In this document: piece after piece, positions 21,515 through 39,060 of the stretch
Layout of the letters: every line of letters starts with the position of its first letter
How positions within the stretch are numbered: position 1 is the first letter of the stretch
NCBI GenBank assembly: GCA_007376285.1
Contig: VMFZ01000004.1
Location: 300-64,299 of the forward strand
Length of the DNA stretch: 64,000 nucleotides
Direction of reading: 5' to 3'
From: Parcubacteria group bacterium Gr01-1014_17
GTDB lineage: Bacteria; Patescibacteriota; Minisyncoccia; Phycocordibacterales; UBA10002
Notes under the pieces: model-generated
Database searches by the model: none
Seen by the model: only the letters and a program-made list of their open reading frames with translations
Told to the model about the DNA's origin: nothing
Program-made: the position numbers and the translations under genes

Positions 21515-24428
21515 ACTGGCATAACCGACACCAGTCGCAATCTTTTTTGCTACAGCCGTTTTTGAGAAACGACAAGTTCAAAATTTGCGAGGCGGCTTCT
21601 ATAATTTGCTGTTTGAGCGAGCTCACTTCCCAATCCGATATTTCAAACGCCTCGCGGTGGTAGCGGCCGCTTTTGTCGAGCTTGATAAAATCAATGACGC
21701 CAGTTCTCATATTCCAATTTTTTCCGCCGCTTCGGCGGGTCGCCGATGAGGCGACTTGTATTTCGTCCAAAAGCAATTTGTAGAACACGAGTTGGCGGTA
21801 ATAATTGCCGTCGCTTGCTTTCGTTTTCCCCAAAATCTCGTTCCGCGTCCGCGGCTTCCCTGTTTTATAATCCACCACTGCTACGCTACCGTTCTGCAGC
21901 ATTTCCACTTTGTCCAAACTGCCCGTAAGTTCCAATTTTTCTTTCCCAACGGTGAGAAAAATGCCAGCGACGCGATACTCGTTCCACGAAACGCGCGAAA
22001 ACTGCCGTGAAGAGAGATACCCTTTCAGTTCACGCTTCCCTTCCGCCAAGTACACTTTGAAATCGCGTTCCGAAATATGCGTGCGCCGGAGTGTGTTTTC
22101 AAACACGCGAAATATCTCGGTAAAAGGTTTGTCGGCGTCGCGGGCGCGAGCGGCGAAGTGCGCTGCGAGCGCGGTATGTATCGCCGAACCGTACAGTTCC
22201 GCGCCAGATTGCGCGCGCGGGACGCGTACGAGGTTCAAGAAAAAATATTTGAGCGGACATTCCAAAAAATTATTGAGGTGCGTTACGGCAAAGCCTTGTC
22301 CCAAAAACAAGGCGTTCATGTATTTTCTTTCTTTTAAACATCCCCCGCCCTTCGGGCACCCCCTTCCAAGGGGGATTGCAGAAATCTCACCTTGAGGGGA
22401 GTACCCGAGCGGAGCGAGTGGGAGGGATGTAATTCGTGTATGTTCCCGCGCCGCCTCCTCCATCTCAAAAATAAAACGGCTGGGCAGAACAGCGCGGCCA
22501 TCGGTATTTTTCGCATGCCAACTCACCGATACTTCTTTGCGCGCGCGTGTTAGCGCGACATAAAATAAACGCCGCTCGTCGTGCGTATCGTTTTCCGCAT
22601 CATCATCCACATATATAGGAAGCTCAAAAAGCGCGCGGCTACGCTTCCCGCCCCATTTGCCGTCTTGCGCGAAAGCGATAAACACATAATCAAACTCCAA
22701 CCCTTTTGCTTTGTGCGCCGTACATACTAAAACGCCGTCGGGCGCTTCCACCGAGGAAACAATACCGATACCGTGCGCCTCCGCCCGTTCCAAGCGCGCG
22801 AGAAAGTCCGCGAGCTTCGCGCGCTTATCGCGCTCAGCGAGGCGCTTCGCGCTTTCAAGAAACGCCGCGTAATGCGCGAGCGCTTCTGGCGCGTCAGGCC
22901 TGCCGAGCGCGATTTCCAAAAATCCGGACTCGTGCGCAATGCGTTCAAAGCCCTCCATGAGGGGTTCATTGTGCGCAATCGTCTGCCATGCAAAAAGCTT
23001 TTTCTGAAATGCGGCGAGTTCTTTTCCGTATTTTACGATACGGAGAATGAGCAGGCCTCCTTCACGCACGCGCACCGCTTCCATTACAGAAAGCAATGGC
23101 AATTTCAGAAAGTCATAAAACAAAACCGGTGCCAGAGACGCATCATCGGCTGGATTCAAAATCGCGACAAACAATTTGCGTAGCGCGTCAATGCGCACCG
23201 ACTGGAGCGCATCCGCATTCCCCCGCCGCGCCGCGGGAATGCCGCGCGCGTGGAGTGCTTGCTCCACCTTCTCTGCATCTTTGTTCTCACGCGCAAGCAC
23301 CGCAATCTCTCGCGGCACGACACCATTTTTAATCAACGCTTCAATCCTACCTATAATCCACGCGAGTTCGCTCGCTTCACTCTGCGCTTCAACGACGCGA
23401 ATGGCGAGTGGCGCGTGCCCTGCACGCGCCGCGAGTCTCTGGTGAACATTCCCATCTCCCGCCGCGAATTTTTCCATAAGCGAATGTGCTGCAGAAAGCA
23501 CCAGCGGCTGTGAGCGATAATTGTCGGTAAGCGCAATCGCGCGCGCGCTTGGAAATCGCTTTTTGAAATACAGAAAGTTTTCGAGCGACGCACCCTGAAA
23601 ACGGAAAATGGCTTGCTTCTCGTCGCCAACGATAAAGAGGTTCGGTGAAGGGTCGTAATCGCATAAAAGTTCCAGTAAGCGGTTCTGGCTCCGGTTCGCA
23701 TCTTGGTGTTCATCTGCAAGTACATATTGATGCTCCTCTTGCAAACGCAATTTGAAATTGGGAGATTGCTCAAGCGCGCGGACAGCTTCTATTATCATAT
23801 CTTCAAAATCGTACAGGCGGCGCTTCACGAGTTCTTTTTCGTACGCGCTGTAGAGTGTCGCGAACTCGCGGCTTCGTTTCCACTTATCGCTTTTTGTATC
23901 AGCACTTCGCGTCAAAAGTTTTAGAAACTCCACAGGAGAGACATTTTCGCGCTTCAATTGTTTAATCGCGTCAATCACAGGCAGAACATAGTAAGCAGGA
24001 GAATTTTTCGGACGCAAAAGTAAAGAGCGTATGCGGTTAATTAAGGTCTCTATAATACGCACCTGTTCCAAATCCTCCATATGTTCAGCGCCTACGATGC
24101 GCGAGAATTCTTCCGGATAGCGCTTAATCAAATCATTCGCAAAACTGTGGAAGGTGTGTATCCGAACTTCGTATGCCCGCGGGCCGATGATTTCCAAAAG
24201 CTTCGTGCGCATCGCCTTCACTCCCGCTTCAGTAAATGTGAGCGCCAAAATCGCGTCCGCAGGCGTGTCGGTCTGTCGTAGAATGTTCGCAATGCGGAGC
24301 GTTAGAATTGAGGTCTTGCCAGTCCCAGGACCTGCAACGACCACCACTGGCCCGTCAATTGCATCTACCGCCTCGCGTTGTGCTCGGTTGAGTTTTTTAT
24401 AGAGGTCGTTAAATATCGTGTCGATCAT
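21507..24428 (-). CDS. UvrD/PcrA-family helicase with C-terminal nuclease-like domain (AddA-like), carrying in-frame hairpin insertions
   Basis: VVVAGPGTGKTS Walker A and C-terminal Cys cluster CDWCRLC. The start is probably MIDTIF; the track ORF extends into a palindrome. Confidence 0.8.
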   Translation of the reverse strand: MIDTIFNDLYKKLNRAQREAVDAIDGPVVVVAGPGTGKTSILTLRIANILRQTDTPADAILALTFTEAGVKAMRTKLLEIIGPRAYEVRIHTFHSFANDLIKRYPEEFSRIVGAEHMEDLEQVRIIETLINRIRSLLLRPKNSPAYYVLPVIDAIKQLKRENVSPVEFLKLLTRSADTKSDKWKRSREFATLYSAYEKELVKRRLYDFEDMIIEAVRALEQSPNFKLRLQEEHQYVLADEHQDANRSQNRLLELLCDYDPSPNLFIVGDEKQAIFRFQGASLENFLYFKKRFPSARAIALTDNYRSQPLVLSAAHSLMEKFAAGDGNVHQRLAARAGHAPLAIRVVEAQSEASELAWIIGRIEALIKNGVVPREIAVLARENKDAEKVEQALHARGIPAARRGNADALQSVRIDALRKLFVAILNPADDASLAPVLFYDFLKLPLLSVMEAVRVREGGLLILRIVKYGKELAAFQKKLFAWQTIAHNEPLMEGFERIAHESGFLEIALGRPDAPEALAHYAAFLESAKRLAERDKRAKLADFLARLERAEAHGIGIVSSVEAPDGVLVCTAHKAKGLEFDYVFIAFAQDGKWGGKRSRALFELPIYVDDDAENDTHDERRLFYVALTRARKEVSVSWHAKNTDGRAVLPSRFIFEMEEAAREHTRITSLPLAPLGYSPQGEISAIPLGRGCPKGGGCLKERKYMNALFLGQGFAVTHLNNFLECPLKYFFLNLVRVPRAQSGAELYGSAIHTALAAHFAARARDADKPFTEIFRVFENTLRRTHISERDFKVYLAEGKRELKGYLSSRQFSRVSWNEYRVAGIFLTVGKEKLELTGSLDKVEMLQNGSVAVVDYKTGKPRTRNEILGKTKASDGNYYRQLVFYKLLLDEIQVASSATRRSGGKNWNMRTGVIDFIKLDKSGRYHREAFEISDWEVSSLKQQIIEAASQILNLSFLKNGCSKKDCDWCRLCQSI

Positions 24429-24457
24429 TGGGGTAGTATACGCGCTTTTTTCCCACG

Positions 24458-24492
24458 ACACCCGATGTCTGCAATTTAGACATCAGGTGTCG
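24458..24492. repeat. P element (35-bp palindrome CACC[AC]GATGTCTGCAATTTAGACATC[TA]GGTG)
   Basis: 14-bp arms around a gcaattt loop; further copies are listed below. Confidence 0.8.
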
Positions 24493-37909: not shown

Positions 37910-37914
37910 TTTGT

Positions 37915-39060
37915 ATGGTTATTTTAGGCATAGAAACATCTTGCGATGAGACGGCCGTTTGTATTATAGAAGCAGATGGACCTCCTGAGAGCGCGGACAT
38001 CGTAATTCGCGCAAACATTACGCTCTCGCAAGCTGCGCTTCACGCGCCGTACGGGGGCGTCTTTCCCAACTTGGCGAAACGGGAGCATATAAAAAACTTA
38101 CCGGTGATTTTGGAAAGAGTCTTGAAGGAAGCAAAACTGGAGAACGATAAACCGGCGATTGATGCAATCGCCGTTACCTACGGTCCTGGTCTTGAGCCGT
38201 GCTTGTGGGCGGGTATTTCGTTTGCACAAGAGCTCGCGAAAAAATGGGGTGTGCAAATTATTCCGGTGAATCATATGGAAGGACACATTTTTTCGGCGCT
38301 GCTGCGCAGAAAAGATGAACCCGCCTCATCGGCGGGTCGCCTAGAAGGCGATTATCAACTACTCGCCCCTGACTTTCCAGCGCTTGCACTTTTGATAAGC
38401 GGTGGGCATACGGAATTGGATTTGATGGAGGGCTATGGAAAATATCGGCTGATTGGAGAAACGCGAGACGACGCAGTCGGCGAAGCGTTTGATAAAGTGG
38501 CGCGCCTGCTCGGACTTTCCTACCCAGGCGGACCGGAGATTTCGCGATTAGCCGAAGGTGTGCGAACCTCGGCGAGCTCCTCGCCTCCGTTCGCACTTCC
38601 GAGACCGATGCTCCACTCTCCAGACTACGACTTTTCTTTTTCTGGTATCAAAACCGCCGTGCTGTATTTGCTGAAAAAAATCGGCCCCCTCCCAACACCC
38701 GATGTTGATGGGCTTCAAACATCGGGTGTTGTTTGTGAAATCGCAAAAGAGTTTGAAGACGCCGTGACCGAAGTACTCGTATCAAAAACAAAAAAAGCGC
38801 TTCGCGAATACGGAGCGCAGACACTCATCGTCGCTGGCGGGGTCATTGCAAACACGCACATCCGTTCCGAATTTCGGAAACTCGGAACGGAAGAACATAT
38901 TGAACTCCTCATTCCCGAAATCCAGCACACGACCGACAACGCGCTGATGATTGCAGTTGCATCTTATGCGACTGCCATGAGCGGAGTCGAAGGGCTTCAG
39001 CGTATAACACGCCCCCTCCGCGCTGACGGGACGGCAAGAGTCGGCGAAAGAAATAACTGA
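37915..39060 (+). CDS. tsaD: tRNA N6-adenosine threonylcarbamoyltransferase TsaD (Kae1/Gcp)
   Basis: MVILGIETSCDETAVCII, HMEGH, ISGGHTEL; 381 aa, with extra segments encoded by palindromic elements. Confidence 0.9.
   Translation: MVILGIETSCDETAVCIIEADGPPESADIVIRANITLSQAALHAPYGGVFPNLAKREHIKNLPVILERVLKEAKLENDKPAIDAIAVTYGPGLEPCLWAGISFAQELAKKWGVQIIPVNHMEGHIFSALLRRKDEPASSAGRLEGDYQLLAPDFPALALLISGGHTELDLMEGYGKYRLIGETRDDAVGEAFDKVARLLGLSYPGGPEISRLAEGVRTSASSSPPFALPRPMLHSPDYDFSFSGIKTAVLYLLKKIGPLPTPDVDGLQTSGVVCEIAKEFEDAVTEVLVSKTKKALREYGAQTLIVAGGVIANTHIRSEFRKLGTEEHIELLIPEIQHTTDNALMIAVASYATAMSGVEGLQRITRPLRADGTARVGERNN
38322..38358. repeat. Q element (tandem hairpins CCGCCTCATCGGCGG plus GTCGCC..GGCGAT) embedded in-frame in tsaD
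   Basis: related copies at 21722..21756 (inside the helicase CDS) and 27040..27075 (intergenic). Confidence 0.6.
38693..38731. repeat. P-variant palindrome embedded in-frame in tsaD
   Basis: caacacccgatgttgatgggcttcaaacatcgggtgttg encodes PTPDVDGLQTSGVV; most similar to the variant at 39905. Confidence 0.6.

Follow-up and report, generated by a model that had tools for sequence, protein, structure and literature searches.

We analysed a 64-kb stretch of DNA (the window; GC 48%) from Parcubacteria group bacterium Gr01-1014_17, an ultra-small groundwater bacterium, and found short palindromic elements lying in frame inside conserved genes, including tsaD, the gene for the tRNA t6A transferase, and the gene for a UvrD-type helicase. 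The elements belong to at least three palindrome families, Q, P and a C/G-rich palindrome, which are dispersed over this genome and those of its relatives. We consider it likely that they are mobile repeats similar to other bacteria's repetitive extragenic palindromes (REPs), and that the copies seen in genes are those that passed a filter for reading frame, absence of stop codons and position in a loop or linker. We propose that copies would enter DNA through a copy-and-insert process; within genes, selection would retain those that are in frame, stop-free and located in a surface loop or interdomain linker, and the retained copies would be translated as 10-13 extra residues. Judging from presence and absence among relatives, repeated use of the same loops, and occurrence of the same family at different sites and in different orientations, the elements are probably mobile. 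We infer that these added residues are neutral passengers and serve no function.

Palindromes within tsaD, a helicase-nuclease gene and pheT

The window's tsaD carries two elements (Table 1), one of family Q and one of the P variant P2a. Q is built of two tandem GC-rich hairpins, CCGCC-N5-GGCGG and TCGCC-N5-GGCGA, joined by a G, and measures ~32 nt; the copy in tsaD folds at dG = -20.6 kcal/mol (z = -3.05). P2a is a perfect 14-bp inverted repeat around an 11-nt loop (z = -5.7). The second loop of Q is usually GATGA, which would read as a TGA stop in the tsaD frame; the tsaD copy has TAGAA instead, as expected of a translated element.

We compared the window TsaD, which is 100% identical to the Gr01-1014_17 protein, with 22 aligned homologues, and its gene with the DNA of six relatives in a codon alignment (loci other than the window are designated L with a number). 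Elements occupy three sites. At site 1, after HMEGH, Q is present in the window only: none of the 22 homologues has PASSAGRLEG, the 79%-identical orthologue is 7 codons shorter at this point, and two other relatives carry unrelated palindromes there. TsaD loops of relatives also contain an 18-bp inverted repeat (L002) and a GCACGAA-repeat palindrome (L006). At site 2, before LPRPM, P2 is found in forward orientation in L002 and L005 and reversed in L003 (…IRCLKPSTS…), and L007 has a C6/G6 palindrome. At site 3, P2a is present in the same frame in the window, L005 and L002; L001 and L003 have the right arm alone (QTSGVV), with a total length equal to that of the empty site; and the site is empty (PSEQIKA-type) in L006, L007 and all more distant TsaDs. 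The peptide encoded by P2a, TPDVDGLQTSGV, is confined to three close relatives and is found neither in more distant TsaDs nor in solved structures. Every one of the TsaD inserts is a multiple of three in length, and no insert, in tsaD or elsewhere, has a stop codon. On these alignments, the three loops are hot spots that have been hit repeatedly, by different families and in both orientations.

Structural modelling places both segments of the window protein in loops. An AlphaFold (AF2) model (predicted local distance difference test score, pLDDT, of 85.7; template modelling score of 0.86 to a solved TsaD) has the Q segment as coil at residues 133-144 and the P2a segment at residues 260-268, between two helices and with pLDDT <50. 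Against the sequence of Aquifex TsaD (8iey), the Q and P2a segments correspond to gaps of 18 and 12 residues.

The second host gene encodes a fusion of UvrD-type helicase and PD-(D/E)XK nuclease. Here Q appears within the nuclease domain as a clean indel of 30 nt (…LLLDEIQ[VASSATRRSG]GKNWNM…; z = -3.9). Only two of the 22 homologues have it, the window protein and that of L008 (P0127, 67-69% identical), at the same codon; it is absent from L009 (P0122, 79-83% identical) and from the 19 others. As read from the alignment, the 32-nt Q cost the target 2 nt in both lineages, which restores the helicase frame. In a neighbour-joining tree, every Q-containing helicase has a sister without Q, a pattern that would fit either a pair of independent insertions at a single site or a minimum of four precise losses. 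The same gene has a GC-rich structured block (-51 kcal/mol, z = -2.7) in the hypervariable linker that joins the helicase and nuclease parts, where length and sequence differ in every relative. Over 31 nt, the block matches an in-frame MurD insert of L069 at 94% identity, so the block is at least partly repeat-derived.

These genes had been singled out in a preliminary description of the window, which reported two in-frame elements in tsaD, a Q copy and the GC-rich block in the helicase gene, and an intergenic Q copy. Each of the four features in coding regions, and the intergenic copy as well, lies within 1-2 nt of the position given there, and its peptides EPASSAGRLEG, PTPDVDGLQTSGVV, QVASSATRRSGGKN and PLGRGCPKGGGCLKE agree with the translations. 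Its proposal that the segments are lineage-specific and sit in surface loops is borne out by the TsaD alignment and model and, for the helicase Q, by nearest relatives that lack the 30-nt segment. Orthologues from unrelated taxa, which should share the peptides if the segments were ancestral, do not do so in the case of TsaD. The description of the linker block as a hairpin element holds to the extent that the block is structured and that 31 nt can be traced to a repeat; the remainder cannot be so traced.

A third host gene, pheT, was absent from the preliminary description. Its C5/G5 palindrome has Pfam PheT domains on both sides and belongs to the same family as the in-frame C6/G6 palindrome NPPPNPPPLVKEGGEGGGF in TsaD of L007. 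The gene was aligned to distant PheT proteins only, and a clean insertion could not be shown there.

Hairpin families in the window and in other genomes

Hairpins with stems of at least 9 bp number 81 in the window, as compared with 17-40 in Markov shuffles, and the folding energies of the hairpins described here lie at z -3 to -5.7 relative to shuffled sequences. The tally of repeats per 64 kb is eight P1 (one of them degenerate), two P2, and three full copies and one half copy of Q. An Rfam scan of the window returned only tRNAs above threshold, with Q and P unmatched even at E values up to 5; no known structured RNA, ribozyme or intron family matched.

Table 1. Positions of palindromic elements, their host genes and associated features. 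Positions refer to the window unless a locus is named.
Feature	Position	Strand	Context and description
Q in tsaD	38320-38352	+	Encodes PASSAGRLEGD; stems CCGCC TCATC GGCGG G TCGCC TAGAA GGCGA at 38321-38351
Q in helicase gene	21724-21755	(gene strand -)	Encodes VASSATRRSG; CCGCC GCTTC GGCGG G TCGCC GATGA GGCGA at 21724-21754
Intergenic Q	27039-27071		Between pth (-) and lepB (+); CTCGCC TCTTC GGCGAG TCGTC GATGA GACGA
Half-Q hairpin	24788-24806	+	CCGCC TCATC GGCGG; 3' end of conserved non-coding element upstream of rpsA
P2a	38693-38731	+	Loop GATGGGCTTCA; in tsaD, in frame, encodes TPDVDGLQTSGV
P2b	39902-39942	+	Loop GATAGGCGGCA; intergenic, downstream of DUF3800 gene; z = -5.5
P1	25994-26030	+	Loop TGCAATTTA; directly past rpsA stop; terminator-like
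Other P1 copies	24455-24493, 24626-24656 (degenerate), 26431-26463, 30838-30872, 33229-33263, 44333-44377, 54830-54860
C5/G5 palindrome CCCCCTCCTTTATAAAGGAGGGGG	59650-59677	-	In frame in pheT (59329-61227, -), encodes SPSFIKEGAGGGF
tsaD (tRNA t6A transferase)	37915-39060	+	Host of two in-frame hairpins; Pfam TsaD E = 1.5e-78
UvrD-helicase / UvrD_C / PD-(D/E)XK (PDDEXK_1) fusion gene, 984 aa	21507-24461	-	Pfam
GC-rich structured block	22345-22440	-	Hypervariable linker between helicase and nuclease (…PLAPLGYSPQGEISAIPLGRGCPKGGGCLKE…)
Two-copy palindrome family ACTATTCCAACTACTTGCTATAGCAAGTAGTTGGAATAGT	24569-24608, 59277-59314		Upstream of helicase gene; near start of open reading frame 56525-59344
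Long perfect palindromes, set 1	13897-13926, 14213-14242		Around ArsR-type helix-turn-helix gene 13896-14207
Long perfect palindromes, set 2	15060-15097, 15680-15715, 15991-16022		Around ArsR-type helix-turn-helix gene 15696-15971
Perfect 16-bp hairpin GGCCATGCGCGCGGGC CTT GCCCGCGCGCATGGCC	37435-37469		Family-2 glycosyltransferase gene, conserved segment GKGAAMRAGLARAHG
rpsA-upstream element in relatives	L013 2251-2357, L036 712-887, L049 4495-4602, L025 7675-7820, L040 757-922

The preliminary description had assigned the tsaD, helicase and intergenic copies to one Q motif. The copies exist, but the motif as written is off by one base: its second half, GTCGNC-GATGAG-GNCGAC, matches neither genic copy, and the true loop is the 5-nt GATGA. 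With the pattern corrected, there are two exact matches in the window (tsaD and helicase) as compared with none in 100 shuffles, and the core CGNCTCATCGNCG has nine matches with up to one mismatch as compared with 1.55 expected. In the intergenic copy, both stems have changed in a covarying manner (CTCGCC/GGCGAG and TCGTC/GACGA); this copy (z = -4.3) is enclosed by a longer stem, GCGCGCCAC…GTGGCGCGC, and a promoter-like TTGCTA-16-TATAAT begins immediately past it. The two genic copies are both on the plus strand of the window, and are 79% identical when aligned on the same strand and 69% identical sense-to-sense. We therefore dropped the sense-to-sense alignment: the better fit of the same-strand alignment indicates that the two copies are opposite in orientation relative to their genes, and the "ASSA" common to their peptides is there because Q is nearly symmetric.

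Q is not limited to this lineage, as had been supposed; it is also widespread in metagenome contigs resembling those of the Candidate Phyla Radiation (CPR). Searching with the stems fixed and the loops free, which gives lower bounds, we found at least 128 copies, most of them on contigs with a GC content of 30-50%. The free loops are conserved, the first as TCATC or TCTTC and the second as GATGA in 53 of the 128 matches listed. In-frame copies occur in RpoD, GyrB, Dus, GluRS, MurD, YchF and PurN, where they encode peptides of the type seen in the window helicase (VASSATRRxGG) or in the window TsaD (PAS[ST]AGRRxGD). The four bases preceding the first hairpin follow the consensus [G/A][T/A]AG, with G in 97% at position -1, A in 73% at position -2, and GTAG in 42 of 118 of the matches listed; 26 of these 42 GTAG tags stem from tRNA D-loop contexts, and the window copies have CAAG, CAAG and ATAA.

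P is the most abundant hairpin family of the window. Its arms read ACACC[A/C]GATGT, its stem is 13 bp, it occurs with the loop variants P1, P2a and P2b, and it has neither a GTAG nor a CGTC tag. The P1 pattern has seven copies in the window as compared with none expected, and every P1 copy lies between genes or at the edge of one. The copies at 25994-26030 and 26431-26463 pass a terminator scan, and T-runs follow those at 44340 and 54830. The intergenic copies, especially P1, probably double as transcription terminators or RNA-stabilising hairpins. Nonetheless, the terminator reading does not suit hairpin copies that lie inside genes or in divergent intergenic regions, and the common asymmetric loop is not a trait of terminators. 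Since copies of P are dispersed singly, we dropped the idea that they are CRISPR repeats.

In a scan of one reference genome per species, for which counts are lower bounds, P1, P2a and P2b were found in at least five related Paceibacteria-type metagenome-assembled genomes, along with chance matches elsewhere. In the relatives' genes for Tgt, Fmt and an HhH-GPD glycosylase, P2 lies in frame, as it does at interdomain positions in those for transketolase and MurD. Forward copies are read in one of two frames (TPDV…QTSGV or HPMF…KHRV), and reverse frames occur too. By the criterion of open reading frame (ORF) context, 14 of the 51 P2 copies listed are in genes, and seven of these host genes were confirmed by Pfam or by the tsaD alignment. 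In 39 distinct P2 copies, paired cells make up 89.9% of the total, a score that none of 500 shuffles reached and that compares with ~40% in slid controls. Columns that the search did not force are paired in 34-39 of the 39 copies, with several types of pair, and the column pairs 5:41, 6:40, 8:38 and 11:35 covary. We found no recurrent gene adjoining P copies; what had looked like clusters of a protein proved to be a conserved non-coding element.

This element, ~110-130 nt long, lies upstream of rpsA (24660-24790 in the window) and recurs in relatives (Table 1). Its hairpins covary, it has no Rfam match, and over a 107-nt core it shares 97% identity with a Taylorbacteria genome. Three relatives have P2 hairpins inserted into the variable loop of the element, and in the window its 3' end is the half-Q hairpin instead. 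The element may be an undescribed small RNA or leader. Elsewhere in the window, intergenic clusters at 30679-31056 and 33229-33365 have P1, a TTTTGCAAAA-type palindrome and ACCCGCGACC…GGTCGCGGGT hairpins adjacent to one another, recalling the mosaic clusters of REPs known as bacterial interspersed mosaic elements in enterobacteria.

A further setting for Q is found in tRNA clusters. Among the matches listed, 36 of 128 Q copies are flanked by CTACCATTAG, which is the antisense of the tRNA D-loop. Read in tRNA-sense order, these loci consist of a 5' tRNA part ending in …TAATGGTAG (usually of tRNA-Gln), Q, GGAC, an ORF for a GIY-YIG protein, and an intact copy of the same tRNA, which is often followed by a further 5'-truncated copy with Q again in the D-loop. 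The GIY-YIG ORF encodes 85-95 aa, is in the same orientation as Q, and starts 9-37 nt downstream of it. At least 19 of the 128 copies are adjacent to such an ORF, and 14 of these 19 have the D-loop flank.

Genes for GIY-YIG proteins (81-110 aa) were seen in tRNA clusters of the CPR-like metagenome loci L154, L142, L197, L209, L132, L126, L161, L171, L172 and others, flanked by dead partial tRNA copies with hairpin modules, of Q or another type, in their D-, anticodon- or T-loops; L197 has two tandem GIY-YIG/Q units. The hairpins differ between such cassettes. In L007, a close relative (100-530), and in L228-L236 (1380-2080 of L228), AT-rich two-hairpin modules lie in the D-arm of a dead tRNA-Glu; in L237 (1280-2030), a hairpin lies in the T-loop of tRNA-Val fragments; and in L238 and L239, hairpins lie in tRNA-like units. 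In L072, the GIY-YIG gene lies between terminal inverted repeats of 14 bp (CCCCCCACCACTTT and AAAGTGGTGGGGGG), which are similar to the C/G palindrome family. No GIY-YIG gene of the cassette type is present in the 64-kb window, and the AT-rich hairpins of L007 and L228 were seen at cassettes only, with no dispersed copies found.

Origin of the hairpins and relation to known repeats

Several observations sit poorly with mobile, REP-like elements. We found no gene for a REP-associated tyrosine transposase (RAYT) or IS200-type transposase in the window or in related loci, in tblastn searches with IS200 TnpA and RAYT queries that covered a small part of each genome. The sole Y1 transposase gene found, in L156, is flanked by a hairpin other than Q or P, and no target-site duplication is visible when filled and empty helicase and tsaD sites are compared. 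The tsaD segments are lineage-specific, as the preliminary description had proposed for insertions, but they are not clean ones: part of the old loop was replaced, and the right arm of P2a takes the place of the start of the following helix. The 37-nt element thereby brought a net gain of 27 nt, and the 32-nt element one of 21 nt. The presence of Q at an identical helicase codon in two non-sister lineages needs strong target specificity or repeated precise loss. Stems of Q, the sequence of which was fixed by the search, are identical over contigs of 28-55% GC. Lastly, 19 of 24 four-fold degenerate sites are identical in the tsaD hairpin codons of the window, L005 and L002, which is more than would be predicted for dead selfish DNA; gene-wide, 47-53% of four-fold sites are identical (~49%). 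This is a small sample of three non-independent comparisons. The only change in the hairpin, seen in L005 and L002, is a compensatory C:G to A:T pair that is synonymous on both sides, suggesting that the in-gene hairpin is not in simple decay. Its retention could be explained by selection on the hairpin, by gene conversion from other copies or by template-switch correction. As a separate observation, the Y1 gene of L156 (9561-10138) is IS200-like and has the hairpin CCCCGCGGCAAGCCGCGGGG on both sides, in an arrangement like that of a REPtron or IS200; a Q copy lies ~9 kb away.

The preservation of stems raises the possibility that the hairpins are kept as nucleic-acid structures, be it as sites in DNA or RNA for the binding of a conserved factor or as signals for mRNA stability, pausing or termination, so that their presence in genes would be selected and not just tolerated. 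This would be compatible with a mobile origin, and is consistent with the compensatory changes that preserve the tsaD P2a stem amid ~50% identical synonymous sites, with loops conserved across genera (TGCAATTTA in P1, GATGGGCTTCA and GATAGGCGGCA in P2, TCWTC and GATGA in Q), with the resemblance of P1 at gene 3' ends to terminators, and with the position of Q just upstream of GIY-YIG start codons at 19 or more loci. We nonetheless think it unlikely. The host genes (tsaD, helicase, pheT, gyrB, rpoD, murD, tgt…) are unrelated and their nearest orthologues do well without a hairpin; genic copies occur in both orientations, which argues against a strand-specific role in RNA; there is no match to an Rfam family; and template-switch correction or gene conversion could also keep stems perfect. 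Template switching during replication might even have formed the palindromes in place, without insertion, either by correcting a quasi-palindrome or by duplicating a neighbouring stretch in inverted form. Such a process would account for the joint change of both arms, and for the right arm alone in L001 and L003 at tsaD site 3, where length is that of the empty site; and the glycosyltransferase gene of the window has a 16-bp hairpin with no change in length. As a general explanation it is very improbable, since the segments in genes match families that recur, with the same arms and asymmetric loops, at many unlinked positions, the same family occurs at different TsaD sites and in both orientations across genomes, and the helicase Q is a clean 30-nt indel. 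More improbable still, to the point of being scarcely credible, is that the segments are ancestral or selected protein loops, or are removed in the manner of introns or inteins, with palindromy being incidental. The segments are indeed in frame and the host genes intact; however, they are missing from the closest and from all distant orthologues, and VASSATRRxGG recurs in the unrelated helicase, GyrB, RpoD, Dus and GluRS. Moreover, removal from RNA would require neither an open frame nor the loss of TGA, 10-13 residues is far below the size of an intein, and there is no match to a ribozyme or intron family.

A different kind of alternative concerns the agent of spread. Q-like two-hairpin modules could belong to, or be spread by, the GIY-YIG cassettes of tRNA clusters, with solitary genic copies of Q being non-autonomous derivatives or footprints. 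Consistent with this, Q recurs beside GIY-YIG ORFs and D-loop sequence in the proportions given above, the same plan with different hairpins is found in four other subfamilies (L007, L228-L236, L237 and L238/L239), and inverted repeats surround the GIY-YIG gene of L072. On the other hand, the window has no such gene, 109 of the 128 Q copies among the matches listed are not adjacent to one, the AT-rich cassette hairpins were seen at cassettes only, and no P copy was found by a recurrent nuclease gene. A simpler account is that insertion of the nuclease gene leaves dead tRNA fragments behind, and that the GTAG of the D-loop is a harmless and preferred landing site for an element that targets GTAG. 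We therefore regard spread by the cassettes as doubtful, and assign an equally low probability to a functional partnership similar to that of REPs and RAYTs with a different nuclease fold, in which the hairpins would be non-autonomous partners of GIY-YIG cassettes or substrates for their recognition or repair. If true, such a partnership would explain the GTAG-tagged Q in dead tRNA D-loops, subfamily-specific hairpins in the same position, the flanking repeats of L072, identical Q stems across divergent CPR lineages, and entry into protein genes; if functional, the link would represent a new way of spreading REP-like DNA.

REP-like mobile repeats are the reading that we favour. Like REPs, the elements are palindromes of 20-40 nt with covarying stems, present in many copies that are mostly between genes, with several families per genome; Q has a GTAG-like tetranucleotide at one end, in part owing to tRNA D-loop contexts; and P1 is wholly extragenic or at gene edges, with many P2 and Q copies departing from this pattern by lying inside genes. 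Unlike REPs, they have no RAYT gene close to any of the copies in the sampled DNA, P lacks a tag, a high share of P2 is in genes, and Q stems are the same in divergent CPR-like contigs (stems being fixed by the search), whereas REPs are usually species-specific. GTAG/CGTC REPs occur within genes, including those for replication and repair, in several phyla and are translated, and GTAG REPs are cut by RAYT; the phyla with GTAG repeats are Proteobacteria, Cyanobacteria, Chloroflexi and the Planctomycetes-Verrucomicrobia-Chlamydiae group, and CPR bacteria are not among them (PMC3733652).

The preliminary description had compared the elements to Rickettsia palindromic elements (RPEs), which are selfish repeats of ~100-150 bp inserted in frame in unrelated housekeeping genes and fall into several families (PMC10969869). 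The likeness is in insertion into unrelated conserved genes, absence from orthologues, and addition of a peptide in a tolerated region. The size does not agree: the elements here are 32-39 nt, and so REP-sized, and encode 10-13 residues, whereas the conserved peptide of RPEs has ~30-50 residues. The host of RPEs is an alphaproteobacterium rather than a CPR bacterium. [quoted passage not shown] However, MITEs, the usual length of which is >50 bp, have terminal inverted repeats around an internal region and produce target-site duplications. The elements here consist entirely of one or two hairpins, no duplication is seen, and target bases were replaced in tsaD. The GIY-YIG cassettes have a parallel in phage T4, where segB is reportedly a free-standing GIY-YIG homing endonuclease gene that sits in a tRNA cluster and is bordered by duplicated or partial tRNA sequence. 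The CPR-like cassettes also sit among tRNA genes with partial tRNA copies, and differ in that they reside in CPR chromosomes and carry hairpin modules in dead tRNA loops.

In-frame palindromes thus appear to represent known, REP- or RPE-like behaviour, and what appears to be new is the lineage. The preliminary description had considered read-through palindromes to be known from Rickettsia and notable here; intragenic REPs are in fact documented in several phyla (PMC3733652), and a full-text literature search found no description of palindromic, REP or MITE repeats in CPR, Patescibacteria or Parcubacteria. Hairpins, palindromes, GIY-YIG and the cassette arrangement go unmentioned in a recent paper on the tRNA introns of Patescibacteria.

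Genomes of CPR bacteria (Patescibacteria) are among the smallest and most streamlined known. This clade still tolerates several families of palindromic repeats, with copies in essential genes: tsaD, pheT and the repair helicase gene in the window, and gyrB, rpoD, murD, tgt, fmt and gltX in relatives. For gene calling and protein alignment in CPR, this means that lineage-specific "insertions" in conserved proteins may be repeat-derived. The inserts are natural markers of surface loops that tolerate insertion, and provide a system for studying the conservation of hairpins inside coding sequence.

Other palindromes and neighbouring genes

Other palindromes of the window are unlike the dispersed families. 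Long perfect palindromes flank two ArsR-type genes (Table 1), one set also bracketing a gene (15077-15691) whose sequence resembles DNA-3-methyladenine glycosylase I. We dropped those beginning at 13897, 14213, 15060, 15680 and 15991 as candidate mobile repeats, since their position on the flanks of ArsR genes makes operators likelier; they are probably operator sites, outside the mobile hairpin families. The 16-bp hairpin in the glycosyltransferase gene was rejected as an insertion because length is unchanged relative to orthologues. Two relatives have shorter versions, and this hairpin may have arisen in place.

The gene directly downstream of tsaD (39117-39746) encodes a DUF3800 protein, and P2b follows it; an initial reading of this gene as cas1 was rejected. 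Two relatives have a short Cas1-like gene at this position. In the Q-bearing contig L118, matches to TCCCGAT...ATCGGGA were rejected as dispersed hairpins owing to their CRISPR-array-like spacing of 75 nt; these TCCCGATGCAACATCGGGA repeats (6306-6549) are unrelated to the dispersed hairpins. In L002, a close relative (17-1433), a gene for a reverse transcriptase (RVT_1) together with an adjacent bAvd gene makes up a diversity-generating retroelement, which lies a few kb upstream of tsaD.

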